Source: Candidatus Magasanikbacteria bacterium CG10_big_fil_rev_8_21_14_0_10_47_10
Lineage (GTDB): Bacteria; Patescibacteriota; Patescibacteriia; Magasanikbacterales; UBA922
Direction of reading: 5' to 3'
DNA: 64,000 nt
Assembly: GCA_002773135.1 (NCBI GenBank)
Contig: PFCB01000022.1
Span: 7,591 to 71,590 of the forward strand
Shown here: positions 7,335 to 56,306 of the stretch, one piece after another
Position numbering within the stretch: the stretch's first letter is position 1
Layout of the letters: each line of letters begins with the position of its first letter
Translations under genes and position numbers: made by a program
Notes under the pieces: model-generated
Database searches by the model: none
What the model was told of the DNA's origin: nothing
Seen by the model: only the letters and a program-made list of their open reading frames with translations

Positions 7335-9098
7335 TTACTTCTTTTTAAGATCAACAATTGTCATTTGTAATTCACGGTTGCCATTCCACTCATTGACACC
7401 AATTTCAAAAACTATATCAAGCACGTCTCCCTTCGACAGTTCACGACTCCAGTCTATCTCTCCACTGCACAAGTTCCAGCCGATTGTTTTGCGAATTGTG
7501 GTAGAGGTATGAGTGATCATGATTCGAAGGTGCTTGCCTTCCTTGCCCACAGGTTCGACACCTACAACAGTTACGTTCTGTGCTAAATATTTCGGCTCCT
7601 CATTTGCCTGACCAAATGGTTTAAATCGGCCAAGTAATTCATAGAGCCCCCAATTTACTTGTTCCAAATCAATCTGGGCATCAATTTTTATCGTCGGTGT
7701 CAAATCAATATCTTTTGTCACGTCTAAAAAATAATCGATAAATGCATTTTCAAATTCTTCGCGAATATCTGGCGATGCAAGGGTAAAACCGCATGCCATT
7801 GGATGGCCGCCAAATTTGGAAAAAAAATGCGGCATCTGTTGCAGCGCCTCAATCATATTGAACCCCTCAACACTGCGGCCTGAACCCATAAACTCAGAAT
7901 CGTCCTTCATGGTCATCGCAAAAACAGGTTTTTGGAATTCATTTTTTATCTGGCTTGCAATCAGACCCACAACCCCACTGGCCCAACCGGGTGCATACAC
8001 AAACAATACTGGTTTATCCATTTGTTTCTGACGTACTTGCTGAATTGCCTCAGTCACAAATTCGTCTGTCATGCGTCTTCGCTCATCATTACTTTGGTTG
8101 AGTTGCCATGCCAAATCCACGGCTTCTGTGCCATCTTTTGTCACCAGCAGCTGATACGCTGTATTGGCATGGTCAAGGCGTCCAGCAGCATTAATTCTGG
8201 GCGCAATGCGAAAGCCAATGGTTTGTGCATCAAGTTCGCGCGTGAGTGATCCGTCTTCATTCATTAGGCGTGCCTCCAAAAGAAGCTTTTGCAGGCCGAT
8301 ACGTTTTGTTTTGTTTAAAACAATAAGTCCAAAGGTTGTCAGAGTCCGTGATTCACCGACAAGTGGCACCATGTCCGCAACACTGGCGATGGCTACCATG
8401 TCGAGCAGCCATTTTTCAAATGCTTCATGATTTTCACCACTTTCAAGAAGTTCATTTTTTTCAGCATGGGTTCTGAGCAGTGCTTGCGCAAGTTTAAATG
8501 CAACACCTCCGCCAGCCAAATGTTTGTACGGGTACGTTTCACCTTCGACTTTTGGATGAATAATGGCAAAGGCAGGAGGGAGTCTTTCTGGAATGCTATG
8601 GTGATCAGTAATAATTACGTCTATCCCTTTTTCGTTGGCGTATTCAACCTCTGCTGTATTACTAATACCACAGTCGCACGTGATGATCAGCGATGTTTCT
8701 TGCGCATGTAGCAGATCAATTGTTTTCATGTTCAGACCATAGCCATCAGTTTCTCTGTGCGGCAAAAAAACGTCAACCGCAGTTGCTCCCAATGCGTGCA
8801 GTGTGTCTGTCAAAATAACCGATGCGCTCACACCGTCGGCATCATAATCTCCATGAATGGTTATTTTTTCATTTTTCTTAACCGCATCAATCAACCGCGA
8901 AACAGCCTTCTTCATGTCTTTAAATAAAAAAGGATCATGAACATGGCAGGTATAATCAGGATTCAGAAATTCGTCAATTGCATCCTGCGTGCGGATGTCT
9001 CTGTGATATAACAATGAGGCAACAGTTCGAGGCAGCTCTGGAAATTGCTCAAAAAAGCTATCTGGCGGAGAGGGGAGGACGTCCCAGCGTTTTTGCAT
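7335..9098 (-). CDS. recJ: single-stranded-DNA-specific exonuclease RecJ
   Basis: 587 aa; DHH (ITIHGDYDADGVSAS...DHH) and DHHA1 motifs. Lies immediately upstream of rnhA on the same strand. Confidence 0.9.
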   Translation of the reverse strand: MQKRWDVLPSPPDSFFEQFPELPRTVASLLYHRDIRTQDAIDEFLNPDYTCHVHDPFLFKDMKKAVSRLIDAVKKNEKITIHGDYDADGVSASVILTDTLHALGATAVDVFLPHRETDGYGLNMKTIDLLHAQETSLIITCDCGISNTAEVEYANEKGIDVIITDHHSIPERLPPAFAIIHPKVEGETYPYKHLAGGGVAFKLAQALLRTHAEKNELLESGENHEAFEKWLLDMVAIASVADMVPLVGESRTLTTFGLIVLNKTKRIGLQKLLLEARLMNEDGSLTRELDAQTIGFRIAPRINAAGRLDHANTAYQLLVTKDGTEAVDLAWQLNQSNDERRRMTDEFVTEAIQQVRQKQMDKPVLFVYAPGWASGVVGLIASQIKNEFQKPVFAMTMKDDSEFMGSGRSVEGFNMIEALQQMPHFFSKFGGHPMACGFTLASPDIREEFENAFIDYFLDVTKDIDLTPTIKIDAQIDLEQVNWGLYELLGRFKPFGQANEEPKYLAQNVTVVGVEPVGKEGKHLRIMITHTSTTIRKTIGWNLCSGEIDWSRELSKGDVLDIVFEIGVNEWNGNRELQMTIVDLKKK

Positions 9099-14356: not shown

Positions 14357-14456
14357 AACAGTATCTATGATAGCAGAATTGGCACTGAATTGGTAGGCTG
14401 GTAATTTGTTTGGTATAGTAACCTGTAAAGCAGTATTATTAAGATCAACGGACAGT

Positions 14457-15812
14457 ATGAAAGTCACTTTTTTTGGTGCGGCGCATCAGGTTACCGGGTC
14501 GTGTCACCTTATTGAAACAAAGACAAAGCGTATATTATTTGATTGCGGCATGTTTCAGGGAGGTAATTATAATGAGGGCAGAAATGCAGATGCATTTCCG
14601 TTTGACCCGTCTGAGCTTGATGCTGTTTTTGTAAGTCATGCACACGCAGATCACAGCGGACGTGTGCCAAAGCTCATACGCGATGGATACGCTGGCGCGG
14701 TATACATGACGAAAGGCACTCGGGAGCTGGCGAAAATTATTTGGGATGATTCGCTCTCAATCATGCGGTATGACAATGAAAAATTTCAGCGGCCAATTTT
14801 GTTTGATGAACATGATATTGATGAGGCCTATGGCTGCTGTGATGGTGTGGACTATCATCAAAAAATTGACCTGGGTGACGGAGTGACTGCACTATTTAAA
14901 GATGCGGGGCATATATTTGGCTCATCCTTTATAGAGCTTCATGCAGACGGCAAAACCCTAGCATATTCCGGTGATTTGGGCAATAAGAATGCCCCAATCG
15001 TGCGTCCTACTGAAATGCTTGGGGAAATAGACGTACTTCTTATAGAATCAACCTATGGGGACAGACTTCATGAACCAGAGGGGCACAGAAAACAGCTTTT
15101 GCTTGATATTGTAAAAAAGGGGATAGCAAATGGAGGTGTGATTATGATGCCGGCCTTTTCCATAGAACGAACACAGGAAATTTTGTATGATTTGGATCAA
15201 CTCAAAGAGCACGATAAGACACTACCAAATTTACCGATCTACCTGGACAGTCCAATGGCTATTAAAGCGGGCAAAGTATACAAAGAATTTCCAGAGTACT
15301 ATGACGAAGAGGCTGCTCAGCAATATAAAATGGGTGATGATTTTTTACATTTTGACGGTTTGGAAGTAACACCATCTCGAGAAGATTCAAAGCGCATCAA
15401 TCATTCGCCAAATCCAAAGATGATAATCGCGGGAGCTGGCATGATGAACGGTGGGCGGATATTGCACCATGCGAAGCGATATTTACCAGATCCTGCATCG
15501 CTTCTTGTTTTGGTTGGATATCAGGCGCAGGGAACATTGGGTCGCAGATTGTACGAAGGTGCAGAGGAAGTTGAAATACATGGTGATAGAATTCCTGTTC
15601 GTGCAACGGTCACTGCTATTGGCGCGTTGTCAGCGCACGCAGATCAAGATAAGTTGGTTGATTGGGTTCGTTCAGCAAAAAAAACACCGGCAAAGGTGTA
15701 TTGTGTTCATGGCGAGCCGCATGCATCAACTGAGCTTGCTCATCGATTAAAAAAAGAAATTTCAGGTTTAGAAGCATTTGTTCCAGAAGAAGGGGAGACG
15801 GTTGAAATTTGA
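14457..15812 (+). CDS. MBL-fold beta-CASP ribonuclease (RNase J/CPSF-like)
   Basis: HxHxDH motif (SHAHADHSGRVPKL) plus a beta-CASP and RNA-specificity domain architecture, about 450 aa. Start taken at ATG 14457; the 14406 start is TTG. Confidence 0.75.
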   Translation: MKVTFFGAAHQVTGSCHLIETKTKRILFDCGMFQGGNYNEGRNADAFPFDPSELDAVFVSHAHADHSGRVPKLIRDGYAGAVYMTKGTRELAKIIWDDSLSIMRYDNEKFQRPILFDEHDIDEAYGCCDGVDYHQKIDLGDGVTALFKDAGHIFGSSFIELHADGKTLAYSGDLGNKNAPIVRPTEMLGEIDVLLIESTYGDRLHEPEGHRKQLLLDIVKKGIANGGVIMMPAFSIERTQEILYDLDQLKEHDKTLPNLPIYLDSPMAIKAGKVYKEFPEYYDEEAAQQYKMGDDFLHFDGLEVTPSREDSKRINHSPNPKMIIAGAGMMNGGRILHHAKRYLPDPASLLVLVGYQAQGTLGRRLYEGAEEVEIHGDRIPVRATVTAIGALSAHADQDKLVDWVRSAKKTPAKVYCVHGEPHASTELAHRLKKEISGLEAFVPEEGETVEI

Positions 15813-15844
15813 TTGCCTGGGTGAGCAATACAAATCAATCCATA

Positions 15845-16085
15845 GCTGCAGCCGTCGAGGTGTCGTTCCAGATGGTGAGGATACGACCTTCTCGATGCTG
15901 AGGATTGCCGCGCTGACTATTGTGGCACCTCTACCGCCACAAACTGTATTGATCACCCAGGGGTTCTCTCCTACCGCGTCATCGCGTCCTCCGGCCTGCT
16001 TGCCCGCCAGCGCGATGAACCCAACTGTGGTATCAGCGTACCAAGTCAGGCATGCAGGGACATCTGCGCACCCTCGGAAATGCGC
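15845..16085 (-). pseudogene. rhodanese-like gene remnant (no start codon)
   Basis: The minus-strand frame reads ...LEHWIIAHFRGCADVP...ENPWVINTVCGGRGATIVSAAIL..., resembling the rhodanese GHIPGA and active-site Cys-loop motifs. An in-frame TGA precedes it and there is no ATG/GTG/TTG start. It lies in a GC-rich island. Confidence 0.25.
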
Positions 16086-16133
16086 AATTATCCAATGCTC
16101 TAATCATATCAATCAGTTTGAATTGAAGCAAAC

Positions 16134-16160
16134 AAAAAAGCACCAATATGGCGCTTTTTT
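16134..16160. terminator. bidirectional intrinsic terminator
   Basis: aaaaaagcacc-aatat-ggcgctttttt: a GC core stem flanked by an A6 and a T6 run. Confidence 0.55.
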
Positions 16161-16448
16161 GTTCCGTCTATCTGCTAGAAGTAACAAAGAGAGGGGAATT
16201 GGGTGATACCGAAGTACCACCCGTGTGGGATTTACTAGGTTCCCGAACCTCTGTTAGCACGCCGCATCTGCCGTTGCAGATGGCCACAATGCGGCGAGAG
16301 CCGACAGTGGCGACCTATGTCGCCTTCACGCGGGATAAACCCGCGGAGCGTAGATTTCTCCACGCTCGCCAATGGCCAGGCATTGAATGCCGGGCACAAC
16401 TTTGGCGAGATACGTATCTCATCAGAGTTGTGCCTGTCACTTACTGAC
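16135..16448 (-). ncRNA. candidate structured ncRNA (about 310 nt) of unknown family
   Basis: On the minus strand it is bounded by a TTGACA-16-TATAGT promoter and the 16134-16160 terminator. The sequence is GC-rich, has no credible ORF in any frame, and carries at least 7 consecutive short hairpins (e.g. ggcgac-atag-gtcgcc, cgcggg-tttat-cccgcg, catctgc-aacg-gcagatg, cacaact...agttgtg). Confidence 0.35.
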
Positions 16449-16454
16449 CACTCA

Positions 16455-16482
16455 CTATAACAGACAATTATCATTCTGTCAA
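16455..16482 (-). promoter_or_regulatory. sigma70-like promoter driving the candidate ncRNA
   Basis: Minus-strand TTGACA (16482-16477), a 16-nt spacer, then TATAGT (16460-16455). Confidence 0.45.
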
Positions 16483-16639
16483 GTACTGCCAGCCTCTGTG
16501 GTGTGAATAACTAGAATATTGGCTTATTCTATCCAATTTTATCCATGATCATACCACCTTTGCAGATGGAATAGTCACGGGTGAGGTTGGGCAAGCAACC
16601 TCTGACCCTCCAATTGTACCCCTCTTGCCAGGGGCAGAC

Positions 16640-16891
16640 CTACGTGTGGTCGTTAAAGCCGTCGAGCGGGTCCTCGTCACGTCGCAGTGCGATTCGCGCC
16701 ATGTGCTCACAGGCGACGCCCAGTGCTACGCAGAGGAGCACGACTGCGGTAAAGAACCAGTTGACGGCGATGTTCGTCACATAGGCGTACCAGGCGAGGT
16801 ACATCGCGCCACCCAACAGCCCGAAGGCCACCAGGTAGAGCACAGTCGCTGCCGCGATCTGTGAGGGTCGCAGCCCTTTGTGCTTGTCCAT
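16640..16891 (-). CDS. GC-rich small two-TM membrane protein (hypothetical)
   Basis: 83 aa (MDKHKGLRPSQIAAATVLYLVAFGLLGGAMYLAWYAYVTNIAVNWFFTAVVLLCVALGVA...). Strong SD (GGAGA with a 4-nt spacer). Very high GC3. Confidence 0.55.
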   Translation of the reverse strand: MDKHKGLRPSQIAAATVLYLVAFGLLGGAMYLAWYAYVTNIAVNWFFTAVVLLCVALGVACEHMARIALRRDEDPLDGFNDHT

Positions 16892-16960: not shown

Positions 16961-17001
16961 AATTGCGCTAAAACTAAATAAATATAATCCACAAATTGCA
17001 T

Positions 17002-17685
17002 ATGCCTGAGCGAATTATATCCGGAAAAGAAATTTTTGCGCTTAGACTTATAGATCAACATTCTAATAAAGTTTTGGCTGATAATCCCGGTATACTTGAC
17101 GATATCGCCGGTGGAGAGCTAAGTACAGAAGAGATTGCTATAAAGTATGAGGTTGCGCGCAAATATGGTGTTACACCTGAAATTGCTAAATCCATCATCA
17201 AGGGCATAGGTCAGCGTGAATTTTCTGCTGAAGAAAGAGCTAAAATTTTTGAGCCCAGGGTGCGTGAGAGTAGGCAGCGTGGAGGATATACAACATTGGC
17301 CGCAGGAACTGGAGTACATGGACTAACAGAGTCACAGCGACGAGATGCCTCACACAAGGCTGGTTCGGTCGCAGGGCCGCAGAGTTATAAAGAGAGATTT
17401 GGTTTGTTTGGGCTGGACAAGGAGACCCTAAGAAAAAGGATAGCGAGCAGTATGCGGGGGAAAGAAACTAGTTGGTTTAATCCCAACAATGTTCGCGATG
17501 GCAAAACAGAAGCAGAATATGCACTTTTTTTGGTTTCTCAACCAGATTATCAGTTGCACAAGGGAGACGTAGTTTCGCCGGATTACACAAAGATCATGGG
17601 AGCCGTAAACGCAATATTTGGGAGAAATCGTTCTAGGGCGGCAGTGAAGGGTTTTTTTGAAAATGAAAAAATGCGCAATCGTTAA
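17002..17685 (+). CDS. hypothetical protein (unknown family)
   Basis: 227 aa from ATG 17002 (the ORF at 16996 starts with TTG). Basic and hydrophilic, with no recognisable motifs. Its stop abuts the uvrB start. Confidence 0.5.
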   Translation: MPERIISGKEIFALRLIDQHSNKVLADNPGILDDIAGGELSTEEIAIKYEVARKYGVTPEIAKSIIKGIGQREFSAEERAKIFEPRVRESRQRGGYTTLAAGTGVHGLTESQRRDASHKAGSVAGPQSYKERFGLFGLDKETLRKRIASSMRGKETSWFNPNNVRDGKTEAEYALFLVSQPDYQLHKGDVVSPDYTKIMGAVNAIFGRNRSRAAVKGFFENEKMRNR

Positions 17686-19755
17686 ATGAATATGGAGAGT
17701 CTGAAGTTTAAACTTCAATCACAATACAAACCAGCAGGCGACCAGCCACAGGCCATAGAAGGCCTTGTTTCTGGTTACAAAAATGGCATGAAGCGACAGA
17801 CCTTGCTTGGGGTAACCGGATCAGGAAAAACATTCACCATGGCAAATGTTATTCAACAAACGCAACTGCCAACGCTTGTTATTGCACACAACAAAACACT
17901 GGCCGCCCAGCTATGCAATGAGTTTAGAGAATTTTTTCCAAACAATGCGGTTGAGTACTTTGTGAGTTACTATGATTATTACCAGCCAGAGGCGTACATG
18001 CCGGGTTCTGATACATATATAGAAAAAGAAGCGCAGATCAATGAAGAAATTGATCGCCTGCGCCACGCGTCTACTCAAGCCATTTTATCTCGCAAAGACA
18101 CTATTATCGTGGCGTCTGTTTCTGCTATTTATTCTCTTGGGTCGCCAAAAGAATATGAAAGCAGTGTGCTCCATTTGGAAAAAGGGCAAAAATTGGATAG
18201 ACGCAGCATGCTGGAGCGGCTGGTAGAAATGCAGTTTGAACGAACAAATGCGGATTTGACGCGTGGAACATTTCGCATGCACGGACAAATTTTTGATATC
18301 ATGCCGGTGAATGAGGAGCGGGTGTACAGATTTGAAATAGGGGAGGAGATTAACGCGATTGAACGGATTCATCCAGTATCAAGAAAAATTCTGAATGAAC
18401 TGCAAGACGCATGGATTTTCCCTGCCAAGCATTATGTCGCGACGCCGGCACAGCGAGAACGCGCAATAAAAAGTATTGATGCTGAATTAGTTAATCAGCT
18501 TGCTTTTTTTAAAAAAAGTGGAAAAGTGTTAGAACACGAACGATTAAAACGACGAGTAAAGTATGATATTGAAATGATTCGCAATGTTGGATACTGTAAT
18601 GGTATAGAAAATTACTCGAGCCATTTTGATGGAAGGGCGCCGGGCGAGGCTGCCTATACACTGCTTGATTTTTTTCAGCATGGTGCTGGTGAATACCTCA
18701 CGATTATTGATGAATCGCATGTGACTGTCCCGCAAATTGGTGCTATGTATCGCGGTGATCGTGCACGAAAAGAAACTTTGGTTGAACATGGGTTTCGATT
18801 ACCAAGTGCAAAAGACAACAGGCCGCTCACATTTGAGGAGTTTGACGAACGGGTTAAAAAAATTACATATGTTTCTGCCACGCCAGCAGAATATGAACTG
18901 AAAATCGCAGAGCAAGTGGTGGAGCAGATTGTACGGCCAACCGGCCTTATTGATCCTGAAGTGATCATTTGCCCTGTGACAGAAACAAAGACCAATGCAT
19001 CTCAGGTTGATGATGTGATTATGCGGATTCAAGAGCGAGTTGCTTCTGGCGAGCGCGCATTAGTGACAACACTGACCAAACGTATGGCAGAGGATTTGAC
19101 TGAGTTTCTCGACAAAAAAGGACTAAAGGTTACATATCTGCATAGCGACATTAAGACAATTGAGAGAATAGATATTATTGGTAAGCTTCGGAAAGGCGAA
19201 GTAGACGTCATTGTGGGTGTGAACTTGCTTAGAGAAGGACTGGATATTCCCGAGGTTTCTCTTGTGGCAATTTTGGACGCGGATAAAGAAGGATTTTTGC
19301 GGAGTGAAACAAGCCTTATTCAGACAATTGGTCGTGCAGCGCGGAACGTGAATGGGCAAGTGGTGATGTACGCAGATCACAGTACCGGATCCATTCAGCG
19401 TGCGATAGCTGAAACAGACCGACGCCGCACCGTGCAACTGGCGTATAATAAAAAACATGGCATAACACCAAAGACAATTGAAAAAGCAATTCGGAATATA
19501 TTGGAAGAATTTGGAATAGATACTGTGCAATCTGCAAATGGCATGAACGCGCGAAAAAAAGGAAGAGGAAAACGTGAGAGTTCTATATTGGAGCTCGATT
19601 TAATTGGTGATGCAAGGCCGATAGCAACAATTATTAAAGACAAAGAATCAAAAATGAAAGAGGCTGCAAAAAATTTGGAATTTGAATTAGCTGCAATTTT
19701 GCGCGATGAAGTGCGGGAGCTTCGGGCAAGAGAGAGGACAGGAGAGAAATTATGA
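17686..19755 (+). CDS. uvrB: excinuclease ABC subunit B
   Basis: 689 aa; Walker A (GVTGSGKTFTMANVIQ), helicase motifs and a C-terminal UVR domain. Confidence 0.95.
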   Translation: MNMESLKFKLQSQYKPAGDQPQAIEGLVSGYKNGMKRQTLLGVTGSGKTFTMANVIQQTQLPTLVIAHNKTLAAQLCNEFREFFPNNAVEYFVSYYDYYQPEAYMPGSDTYIEKEAQINEEIDRLRHASTQAILSRKDTIIVASVSAIYSLGSPKEYESSVLHLEKGQKLDRRSMLERLVEMQFERTNADLTRGTFRMHGQIFDIMPVNEERVYRFEIGEEINAIERIHPVSRKILNELQDAWIFPAKHYVATPAQRERAIKSIDAELVNQLAFFKKSGKVLEHERLKRRVKYDIEMIRNVGYCNGIENYSSHFDGRAPGEAAYTLLDFFQHGAGEYLTIIDESHVTVPQIGAMYRGDRARKETLVEHGFRLPSAKDNRPLTFEEFDERVKKITYVSATPAEYELKIAEQVVEQIVRPTGLIDPEVIICPVTETKTNASQVDDVIMRIQERVASGERALVTTLTKRMAEDLTEFLDKKGLKVTYLHSDIKTIERIDIIGKLRKGEVDVIVGVNLLREGLDIPEVSLVAILDADKEGFLRSETSLIQTIGRAARNVNGQVVMYADHSTGSIQRAIAETDRRRTVQLAYNKKHGITPKTIEKAIRNILEEFGIDTVQSANGMNARKKGRGKRESSILELDLIGDARPIATIIKDKESKMKEAAKNLEFELAAILRDEVRELRARERTGEKL

Positions 19756-38806: not shown

Positions 38807-38892
38807 GCAAACGTTTTTGTTTATTTTAATATGTTCTGTATCAATACCATCTGTATCAATAACCACTCACTGTTGCCGTTTTCAAATCGTTG

Positions 38893-38964
38893 CTCGGAGA
38901 CTAGGATTCGAACCTAGATACCCAGGACCAGAACCTGGAGTCCTACCATTAGACGATCTCCGAA
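38893..38964 (-). tRNA. tRNA-Gln (anticodon CUG)
   Basis: Hand-folded cloverleaf: acceptor TCGGAGA/TCTCCGA, D-stem GTCT/GGAC, anticodon stem CCAGG/CCTGG with loop TTCTGGT, T-arm CTAGG-TTCGAAT-CCTAG, discriminator G. No CCA is encoded. Confidence 0.8.
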
Positions 38965-48224: not shown

Positions 48225-48261
48225 CTGACTCTTGTTGGTCTGATGAGGTACCAAAATAAAA

Positions 48262-48285
48262 AAACACACAGATGTGTGAATTGCC
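48262..48285 (-). terminator. terminator downstream of the GC-rich wHTH gene (minus strand)
   Basis: Minus-strand cacaca-tc-tgtgtg followed by a T7 run. Confidence 0.4.
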
Positions 48286-48296
48286 CGCCGAAGCTG

Positions 48297-48620
48297 TTAC
48301 GCTCCGGCGGACGAGGGGTGGGGGATTGGCGGGATGGTGGACACTTGGGATGCCAAATGGTCCGGTGGCTCAGGGAGCATGCTGTTCAGGCATTGCCTCA
48401 CCTCGCGACGGATGGCAACCCATCCGTTGATCACCACGATCAGCCGGGCTCTCTGTAAGCAGTCGATCACATAGATCAACCGCTTCTTCCCCAGATGTTT
48501 TGGGGCATCCGCCATCATACTGTCGAATGCCTGGTTGCCCTCCTTGTGCAGGCTGTAGAGAACCTGCAGGTGAACTCTGTGAAGAAGCGCCGCCCGCGTC
48601 CAAAATTCCTGCTCCGTCAT
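48297..48620 (-). CDS. GC-rich small putative winged-helix DNA-binding protein
   Basis: About 107 aa from MTEQEFW. An HTH-like core (LHRVHLQVLYSLHKEGNQAFDSMMADAPKHLGKKRLIYVIDCLQRARLIVVINGW). High GC and GC3. Lies antisense to the flanking + genes. Confidence 0.45.
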   Translation of the reverse strand: MTEQEFWTRAALLHRVHLQVLYSLHKEGNQAFDSMMADAPKHLGKKRLIYVIDCLQRARLIVVINGWVAIRREVRQCLNSMLPEPPDHLASQVSTIPPIPHPSSAGA

Positions 48621-48689
48621 TGATACCTCCTGTTGTCGAATAAAAACTATATACCGATTTAGACGATTTGTCAATTATACGAGATCCCT

Positions 48690-55629: not shown

Positions 55630-55641
55630 GGGGGGGGGGGG
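55630..55641. repeat. homopolymeric G12 tract
   Basis: 12 consecutive G residues, 18 nt upstream of the cyclophilin ATG and 13 nt after the atpD stop. Confidence 0.9.
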
Positions 55642-55658
55642 AAATTGAGTCAGAGCGT

Positions 55659-56306
55659 ATGAAAAAAATTTCTCTTTTATTCGCAATTTTCATAACCATT
55701 GGCGCCGGATGCGCAGCAACCACGCCCCCGCAAGTGCAAGGCAAAGCTGCTGACGAGCAACCGGCTGTAACCCAACAGAAACCTATGAAACGAACACGCG
55801 ACGGGCAAGAGGATCTTGCACAGCAATATGGCAAGGCAATACTGCATACCACAAAGGGCGATATTTCAGTGCAATTTTACGCCGACGAATCTCCAGTCAC
55901 GGTGAACAATTTCATGCATCTTGCGCAGGAAGGATTTTATGACGGGACAGCCTTTCACCGGGTGATAAAGGATTTCATGATCCAGGGTGGTGATCCGCTG
56001 AGCCGCGACAAAGAGTCCGGGCAGCTTCCCGGTTCCGGAGGTCCGGGATATGCATTTGAGGATGAATTCAATAACCACAGGCTTGTGCGCGGCTCCCTGG
56101 CAATGGCTAACGCAGGACCGAATACGAACGGCTCTCAATTTTTTATCGTGACAGCCGCTGAAACGCCTTGGCTGGATCGCCGTCACACCAATTTTGGAGA
56201 AGTTATCGCCGGCATGAATGTGGTGGACAGTATTGAAAATACAGCTGTTGACAGCAATGATAATCCCACCGACCCAATCGTGATTACATCAGTTGAACTG
56301 CAGTAA
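55659..56306 (+). CDS. cyclophilin-type peptidyl-prolyl cis-trans isomerase, lipoprotein form
   Basis: Lipobox (IGAGC) and a cyclophilin core (FHRVIKDFMIQGGDP...GSLAMANAGPNTNGSQFFI). Confidence 0.85.
   Translation: MKKISLLFAIFITIGAGCAATTPPQVQGKAADEQPAVTQQKPMKRTRDGQEDLAQQYGKAILHTTKGDISVQFYADESPVTVNNFMHLAQEGFYDGTAFHRVIKDFMIQGGDPLSRDKESGQLPGSGGPGYAFEDEFNNHRLVRGSLAMANAGPNTNGSQFFIVTAAETPWLDRRHTNFGEVIAGMNVVDSIENTAVDSNDNPTDPIVITSVELQ

Follow-up and report, generated by a model that had tools for sequence, protein, structure and literature searches.

The window analysed here, a stretch of 64 kb from a Candidatus Magasanikbacteria bacterium of the CG10 Crystal Geyser set, carries genes for MurJ, CorA, a protein of no assigned function, a beta-CASP RNase (14406-15812, plus strand), UvrB (17686-19755, plus strand) and a DUF218 protein in this order, with a gap of 1.87 kb between the beta-CASP gene and uvrB. 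On the minus strand, this gap holds a gene for a protein of 83 amino acids (aa), a conserved element of ~56 nucleotides (nt) and a candidate structured RNA, which is our subject; on the plus strand, it holds a 229-aa protein gene joined to uvrB. The RNA lies in an intergenic region (15813-16639) that, with 827 nt and 51.3% GC, exceeds every other one of the window in length and in GC content, all others being at or below 48%; the RNA itself reaches 53.1% GC compared with 47.3% for the window. Because long, GC-rich intergenic regions are a criterion that enriches for structured non-coding RNAs (PMC8723152), this setting supports the presence of such an RNA. In a genome of very high coding density, one would hardly expect a GC-rich non-coding stretch of this length, with the best promoter of the 64 kb in it, to be neutral.

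The RNA unit occupies ~315 nt of the minus strand, ~285 nt of which are stable hairpins placed back to back between a promoter and a terminator hairpin. Read 5' to 3' along that strand, its parts are as follows.

16454-16482, minus strand: sigma-70-type promoter, with the -35 hexamer TTGACA (16482-16477), a 17-nt spacer, TGn (16462-16460) and the -10 hexamer TATAGT (16459-16454).
16393-16448, minus strand: 5' end of the RNA, with the hairpin GUCA-guaag-UGAC and then the two-tier hairpin H1 (GGCACAACU...AGUUGUGCC), whose inner stem is UGAGAU-ACGU-AUCUCG; inverted repeat I1.
16309-16391, minus strand: four successive hairpins of the minimum-free-energy (MFE) fold, GGCAU-uca-AUGCC, GAGCGUGGA-GAAA-UCUACGCUC (GNRA loop), CGCGGG-uuuau-CCCGCG and GGCGAC-auag-GUCGCC.
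16251-16307, minus strand: long composite hairpin H7 (CUGU...ACAG), enclosing CGCCGCAU.../...AUGCGGCG, with the alternative inner stem CAUCUGC-aacg-GCAGAUG.
16201-16249, minus strand: small hairpin GGUU-cggg-AACC, a linker with UAAAUCCCACACGGGU, and the hairpin H9, GGGUGGUAC-UUCG-GUAUCACCC, with a C(UUCG)G tetraloop.
16164-16200, minus strand: tract AAUUCCCCUCUCUUUGUUACUUCUAGCAGAUAGACGG, rich in C and U and weakly paired; no other extended segment of the RNA is of low stability.
16131-16163, minus strand: bidirectional intrinsic terminator AACAAAAAAGCGCCA-uau-UGGUGCUUUUUUGUU, forming the 15-bp terminal helix of the fold; inverted repeat I4, 93% complementary.

The promoter matches 11 of 12 consensus positions, has the TG extension in addition and is the strongest in the window. 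Promoter-like sites with at least 11 of 12 matches number five in all 64 kb, whereas 0.73 would be expected from shuffled sequences, and three of the four remaining sites lie directly 5' of genes. An initial reading of the DNA, made without database searches (hereafter the sequence-only reading), had placed a near-consensus promoter at 16482-16455 with a 16-nt spacer; the promoter stands, but the spacer is 17 nt long and the -10 hexamer ends at 16454. Transcription is predicted to start at ~16447-16448. At the other end, the terminator that had been seen at 16160-16134 is confirmed as the hairpin 16131-16163, a 15-bp helix with a U-run. Its inverted repeat (arms 16131-16145 and 16149-16163) has a GCGCCA/UGGUGC core and A6/U6 flanks, which make it bidirectional, and the 3' end of the RNA is predicted at ~16133-16138. 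A simple terminator scan of the window did not report this hairpin; the likely cause is that the extended stem takes up the U-run.

Folding of a 323-nt stretch gave an MFE of -153 kcal/mol, compared with -102 +/- 6 kcal/mol for dinucleotide shuffles (z -8.3), and none of the 100 shuffles folded as well; the centroid structure is close to the MFE structure. When both strands of the whole window were scanned in 160-nt windows, 16081-16480 held the three most extreme z-scores of 1598 (-9.5, -8.4 and -7.1), against a background with a mean z of -0.33 and a standard deviation of 1.28, and the extreme set includes windows without the terminator. Each of the stem-loops listed in the sequence-only reading, which had counted at least seven GC-rich ones, is present both in the sequence and in the MFE fold. 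Taken together, the promoter, hairpin chain and terminator far exceed what chance would produce, and we consider this observation confirmed. Another outlier of the fold scan, at 48297-48674 on the minus strand, is an ordinary ~106-aa gene with a Shine-Dalgarno sequence; a candidate second structured RNA at 48241-48560 was rejected because the sequence there is that of a normal protein-coding gene. The promoter of that gene (48674-48646), one of the five sites counted above, has hexamers identical to those of the RNA promoter (TTGACA-17-TATAGT).

At gathering score, the 4227 families of Rfam 15 matched only a tRNA-Gln in the whole window, and a search of 15900-16700 with permissive filters at E<=10 returned chance-level matches only (mir-266 on the palindrome, leader models on the terminator). 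The covariance-model check that the sequence-only reading had proposed thus assigns the RNA region to no family at either threshold. The tRNA-Gln (anticodon CTG; 38892-38963, minus strand) is the only Rfam or ARAGORN match in the window.

Sequences from bacteria of the Candidate Phyla Radiation (CPR) are often divergent. The size and GC-rich hairpins of the RNA resemble those of stable RNAs, and a CUGAUGA string is present, as might be expected if it were a highly divergent housekeeping or catalytic RNA that Rfam misses in a CPR host. The individual candidates do not bear this out. RNase P RNA of type A or B gave no Rfam match to E<=10, and its P4 strings (GGAAAGUCC... / ACAGAA..GGCUUA) are absent. 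For transfer-messenger RNA (tmRNA), ARAGORN finds only the tRNA-Gln and Rfam has no match; the unit has no tRNA-like end and no tag open reading frame (ORF). Neither signal recognition particle (SRP) RNA nor 6S RNA gave an Rfam match at E<=10; there is no GGAA/AGCA domain IV as in the former, and the fold is a string of independent hairpins, not one long hairpin with a central bubble as in the latter. The CUGAUGA in H1 is followed by a stem and a GCCAAA that closes on its own 5' strand, with no GAAA, no third helix and no Rfam hammerhead match. The negatives that the sequence-only reading had reported for RNase P, tmRNA, SRP and hammerhead therefore hold, on direct reading, in Rfam to E<=10 and, for tmRNA, with ARAGORN. 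Moreover, the closest relative in the databases (locus L081, whose beta-CASP protein is 76% identical; the next, L082, is at 70%) does not have the RNA, which is unlike any essential RNA and makes a divergent housekeeping RNA very unlikely indeed.

Several other element types were rejected. Against a TIGR (tandem interspaced guide RNA) array of the TIGR-Tas kind (PMC12045711), the RNA has no internal direct repeats, and no neighbouring protein has a Nop-domain-type Pfam match. HEARO/omega RNA, a retron msr-msd and a bridge RNA were rejected on the neighbours, which are the beta-CASP RNase, the 83-aa membrane protein, the 229-aa protein and UvrB, and on the lack of an Rfam match. A type I antitoxin RNA does not fit either, as the unit lies 3' of the 83-aa gene and has the same orientation, with a non-significant duplex score against its mRNA (z -1.8).

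The sequence-only reading had also stated that no frame contains a plausible ORF. Mechanical ORFs do overlap the RNA region, with 79 and 41 aa on the minus strand and 99, 47 and 142 aa on the plus strand, and two of them (142 aa, 15778-16206; 99 aa, 16148-16447; both plus strand) are called as genes in public assemblies, but none is credible. These calls and the mere existence of the frames are what speaks for a locus encoding one or more small proteins (of 79, 41, 99 or 142 aa). The 79-aa ORF, however, begins inside the promoter spacer, the plus-strand ORFs cross the terminator or overlap the beta-CASP gene, and direct reading finds no Shine-Dalgarno sequence paired with a start codon. No Pfam, NCBIfam or PADLOC match was found for the 79-, 99- and 142-aa ORFs. 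The 99-aa antisense ORF, which spans nearly the entire RNA, was the only internal ORF searched for homologs, in a HMMER search that served as a proxy for DNA homologs; against 1.84 billion representative proteins it found itself and two weak matches to long proteins (E ~1e-7, ~30% identity), with no convincing homolog. We therefore regard a small-protein locus as barely conceivable, and the public 142-aa and 99-aa 'proteins' are most likely spurious gene calls, that is, misannotations.

The RNA is bordered by three further features within the gap.

15813-16130, between the terminator and the beta-CASP stop codon: GC-rich (53%) non-coding flank of moderate structure, with a fold z of -3.3 on both strands.
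16554-16634, minus strand: conserved element composed of UGGAGGG and a pair of hairpins whose loops are complementary to one another; next to it, a GCAA-loop hairpin at 16554-16569.
16640-16891, minus strand: gene for the 83-aa protein, predicted to be a two-helix membrane protein, with its own promoter at 16946-16918.

On the beta-CASP side, no other plus-strand terminator-like site is listed between the beta-CASP stop codon and the hairpin at 16131-16163, so that the beta-CASP mRNA may also terminate there, and the flank may double as its ~320-nt 3' untranslated region (UTR). The flank contains an inverted repeat of 17 bp (15816-15832 / 15945-15961; 94% complementary).

On the other side, the conserved element follows directly 3' of the 83-aa stop codon, with the sequence CCCCUGGCAAGAGGGG-N6-UGGAGGG-N3-GAGGUUG-cuugcc-CAACCUC-N-CCC and the complementary loops GGCAAG and CUUGCC. 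Its position 3' of the 83-aa ORF and 5' of the RNA promoter places it outside the promoter-driven RNA and inside any transcript that reads through from the 83-aa gene. Copies are found in L081 (1628-1682; 87% identical, the flanking small ORFs not being alignable) and in L082 (2746-2790), where the second hairpin is kept through compensatory stem changes. A 7-codon mini-ORF in the element (MLAQPHP) is identical in L081, with two silent differences. The element is absent from 80 loci fetched from other genomes, from viral contigs and from a metagenome scan, the last being a weak negative because the metagenome scans did not return the source contig itself and the sample is thus missing from that collection.

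Since no terminator-like site was found after the 83-aa stop codon (16640) and before the RNA, read-through may also produce the RNA as the 3' UTR of the 83-aa mRNA. It could even be mainly that, a long structured 3' UTR stabilising or regulating the mRNA in cis, and not a separate gene: the first terminator after the 83-aa ORF is the RNA's own, and comparable structured regions in L082 and L094 are without strong promoters of their own. The strength of the internal promoter, unsurpassed in the window, and the equivalent small-ORF arrangement of L081, which does without the RNA, argue against this reading, and we consider it distinctly improbable. DapZ and MicL are known sRNAs (small RNAs) that derive from 3' UTRs and have an internal promoter. 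Like them, the RNA comes directly 3' of a protein gene of the same orientation, is not separated from it by a terminator, shares the terminator of that gene and has its own promoter; unlike in DapZ and MicL, this promoter is not inside the coding sequence but ~160 nt past the stop codon, and L081 has a small ORF in this place without the RNA.

The locus is 100% identical over 1250 nt in five assemblies of the source population and, being identical in independent assemblies, is not an assembly artefact; look-ups of protein clusters for sequence variants of the locus found none. Covariance models of the 5' half (R1, with a structure from RNAalifold/MFE) and the 3' half (R2), run on 686 kb with default filters and on 47 kb with filters off, returned self-matches and scattered weak hairpins on the wrong strand. 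Viral contigs contained no match in any of five exact-pattern scans, four with segments of the RNA and one with the 56-nt element. Two metagenome scans, with an RNA seed pattern and with a pattern of the element, also gave none, a negative that carries the weakness already mentioned.

These data are accounted for best by a genuine orphan RNA, structured, transcribed on its own, belonging to no known family and specific to this lineage of Candidatus Magasanikbacteria, and this is the reading to which we give about half of our confidence. The RNA has the generic attributes of a stand-alone sRNA gene, namely its own promoter, a 3' intrinsic terminator and no credible ORF. A conserved structured RNA class, in contrast, is defined by several homologs with compensatory changes, and no homologs were found here. 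Of the earlier proposal of an undescribed structured RNA, what stands is the discrete promoter-to-terminator unit with an exceptional fold outside the Rfam families; a conserved structured class is not supported.

Minus-strand transcription would start from the RNA's own near-consensus, extended -10 promoter and stop at the bidirectional terminator. The ~nine stable hairpins, including those with C(UUCG)G and GAAA loops, would form a nuclease-resistant body and make the RNA long-lived, while the C/U-rich tract (UUCCCCUCUCUUUGUU) just 5' of the terminator could be the part that acts in trans, through pairing with purine-rich targets, ribosome-binding sites for example. The product would be a regulatory sRNA that could be expressed from its own promoter and perhaps, in addition, through transcription that continues from the 83-aa membrane-protein gene. 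We put forward the specific base-pairing through the C/U tract with considerable doubt.

A number of results weigh against an independent RNA gene that acts in this way. Complementarity of the C/U tract to the translation-initiation regions of the window is not enriched over that to within-gene sequences, and the neighbouring mRNAs have no significant complementarity to the RNA except for a G-U-rich match of doubtful meaning, although the duplexfold energies of long sequences carried little information. The plus strand folds nearly as well (z -8.0, -140.5 kcal/mol), with eight G-U pairs on each strand; the minus-strand fold is more stable by 11.7-12.5 kcal/mol, a point in favour of the RNA, but because the two are almost equally good, the strand of the RNA is assigned from the promoter and not from the structure. 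With stems that are mostly Watson-Crick, plus these G-U pairs on both strands, the structure is equally compatible with palindromes at the DNA level. Searches with the RNA found no match among plasmids and phages (blastn in distant mode) or in 87 related loci (nhmmer; 80, then 7 more). With neither homologs nor variation, neither covariation nor purifying selection is in evidence. Finally, L081 has a small ORF with its copy of the 56-nt element after it; this ORF lies only 158 nt from the beta-CASP gene, and both the RNA and its flank are absent.

This absence bears on the main rival, and a serious one, in which the unit is a relic of acquired or mobile DNA, for instance a decayed cassette or a non-autonomous palindromic element, lodged in a permissive intergenic hotspot. 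Its promoter and terminator may be remnants or still active, but its RNA would serve no function. The order of CorA, the gene of no assigned function, beta-CASP and UvrB is conserved in Magasanikbacteria, and among genomes the beta-CASP RNase is matched best by bins of Magasanikbacteria, at 64% identity or less. The beta-CASP/uvrB gap itself ranges from 26 nt to ~5 kb among relatives, with contents that are unrelated from genome to genome. It is an indel-prone, accessory, hypervariable segment, and the RNA does not belong to the core that the lineage conserves. Relative to L081, the RNA and the 318-nt flank amount to an indel, a ~720-nt block that L081 does not have. The block has a uniform GC content of 53%, compared with 47% for the genome; together with the strand symmetry of the fold, the 17-bp inverted repeat in the flank and the lack of conservation in any search, this is consistent with a relic. 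On the other hand, random decay yields neither a fold z of -8 nor the window's best promoter placed one RNA length 5' of a terminator. Searches of the window and of 58 related loci showed a single copy of the RNA. The unit is flanked neither by terminal inverted repeats nor by target duplications, genes for an integrase or a transposase are absent from its neighbourhood, and searches of plasmids, phages and viral contigs gave nothing similar. A repeat of the type of miniature inverted-repeat transposable elements (MITEs) or repetitive extragenic palindromes was rejected on the single copy in the window and these 58 loci and on the missing terminal repeats. Decayed foreign DNA, which the sequence-only reading had named as its alternative, thus gains from the absence in L081 and the indel-prone gap and loses from the fold z-score, the quality and spacing of promoter and terminator, and the single copy; we consider a relic somewhat unlikely.

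As a stand-alone, promoter-to-terminator bacterial sRNA, the orphan RNA would belong to a known kind, while the molecule itself is outside all described RNA families. RsaE/RoxS of Firmicutes are stand-alone, intrinsically terminated regulatory sRNAs with C-rich unpaired seeds. The window RNA resembles them in its own sigma-70-type promoter, Rho-independent terminator and lack of an ORF, and in a C/U-rich, weakly paired tract beside the terminator that could pair with purine-rich ribosome-binding sites. It is, however, ~3 times longer and has ~nine stable hairpins where they have two to four, and, unlike the widely conserved RsaE, it has no homologs and no detected target enrichment. We know of no RNA chaperone in the Magasanikbacteria lineage. 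Large structured bacterial RNAs of unknown function include raiA, ROOL, OLE, GOLLD and HEARO/omega RNA, all of them in Rfam. The window RNA shares with these a multi-hairpin, GC-rich architecture of several hundred nucleotides and the lack of an obvious function, but it has no covariance-model match; they are conserved in many genomes and have characteristic neighbours (IscB for HEARO), none of which occurs here.

To our knowledge, the non-coding RNAs of CPR bacteria are almost unexplored. If expressed, the RNA would be a rare lineage-specific structured sRNA in reduced episymbionts. Orphan or rare structured-RNA candidates have been derived from long GC-rich intergenic regions with the GC-IGR/DIMPL approach (PMC8723152, PMC11109978 and PMC8632094). 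Like those candidates, the window RNA comes from a long and GC-rich intergenic region, the longest and most GC-rich of the window, and combines a strong predicted structure with membership of no existing family; unlike them, accepted only with several covarying representatives, it is a single sequence that has no comparative support.

Several relatives have units on the minus strand that are GC-rich and strongly folded and lie at the same position, immediately next to the beta-CASP stop codon in L047, L002, L094, L001 and L013.

L047, 7365-7722, minus strand: unit of 358 nt with the promoter TTGACA-17-TACATT; its windows reach 64% GC, against 39% for the locus.
L002, 7370-7912, minus strand: unit of 543 nt with the promoter TTGACA-17-TATATT and TG; 61-63% GC against 37%; a second unit at 8035-8245.
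L094, 5925-6258, minus strand: unit with 62% GC and z -5.4; no strong promoter of its own.
L082, 2431-2811, minus strand: hairpin-dense region of 381 nt, different from the window RNA and in its place, z -7.2 on the minus and -3.2 on the plus strand, with a bidirectional terminator; no strong promoter of its own.
L001, 7375-7790, and L013, 7365-7690: tandem small units with promoters matching 10-12 of 12 positions.

In the four loci that were scanned, the structured units include, or tie for, the most extreme fold z-score. Rfam found nothing in the gaps of 11 related loci at gathering score or of 5 at E<=2. That such units, some with their own promoter, recur in other Magasanikbacteria suggests that RNA genes are maintained at this site, an argument for a real RNA gene in the window. 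The units cannot be aligned with each other or with the window RNA (Smith-Waterman z ~0) and share no collinear k-mers. Only an anchored alignment of the window RNA with the L082 region is marginal, at a z of 1.8 and with 17 of 400 shuffles reaching its score. Both contain UAAA(U)CCCACACGGGU, and the linker in 16201-16249 matches the L082 terminator (UAAACCCACACGGGU) with one base extra. A 3' motif apparently shared with L047 (CUUUGUU...GCAGRUAG) was rejected, as the pattern had been derived from the same two sequences, the terminator-free local alignment has a z of -0.15 and the hairpin registers differ. In L012, a very long inverted repeat with ~35-bp arms adjoins the beta-CASP stop codon (~7350-7520), perhaps as a MITE-like element or as a terminator of unusual size.

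The recurrence of structured units at the same place in L047, L002, L082 and L094, with tandem small ones in L001 and L013, raises the possibility of a class of structured RNAs that keeps its position at the beta-CASP/uvrB junction while its sequences are hypervariable, and in which functional equivalents diversify fast or are exchanged like cassettes. The 56-nt element, conserved in the three closest genomes between two variable flanks, would fit such a class, as would the marginal alignment and the motif shared with L082. Yet the units are unlike in sequence and in sequence plus structure, with covariance models that match themselves or wrong-strand hairpins; they are between 130 and 540 nt long; L081 and most other relatives are without one; and those of L082 and L094 have no strong promoter of their own. 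We judge this class fairly improbable. A more specific version, that the junction is a dedicated hypervariable 'RNA cassette' site holding different, mostly promoter-driven structured RNAs in each genome beside the 56-nt element, with the window RNA as one allele, seems to us improbable. If it were true, the site could house a fast-diversifying RNA-based system, for example in phage conflict or in the interaction of the episymbiont with its host cell. With unrelated structured RNAs in relatives, the junction is a concrete place to seek RNA-based accessory functions.

Elsewhere in the gap, the last base of the 229-aa protein gene (16996-17685, plus strand) directly precedes the uvrB start codon. 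The protein is identical to one of 'Candidatus Magasanikbacteria bacterium CG10_big_fil_rev...'. It has no match in Pfam, NCBIfam, PADLOC or the PDB, and only one homolog was found (40% identity), in an unrelated gene context. Further along the window, a run of 13 G residues (55631-55643) lies 15 nt 5' of the ATG of an ORF at 55659-56306; such homopolymers can cause slippage and phase variation, or be prone to assembly error.

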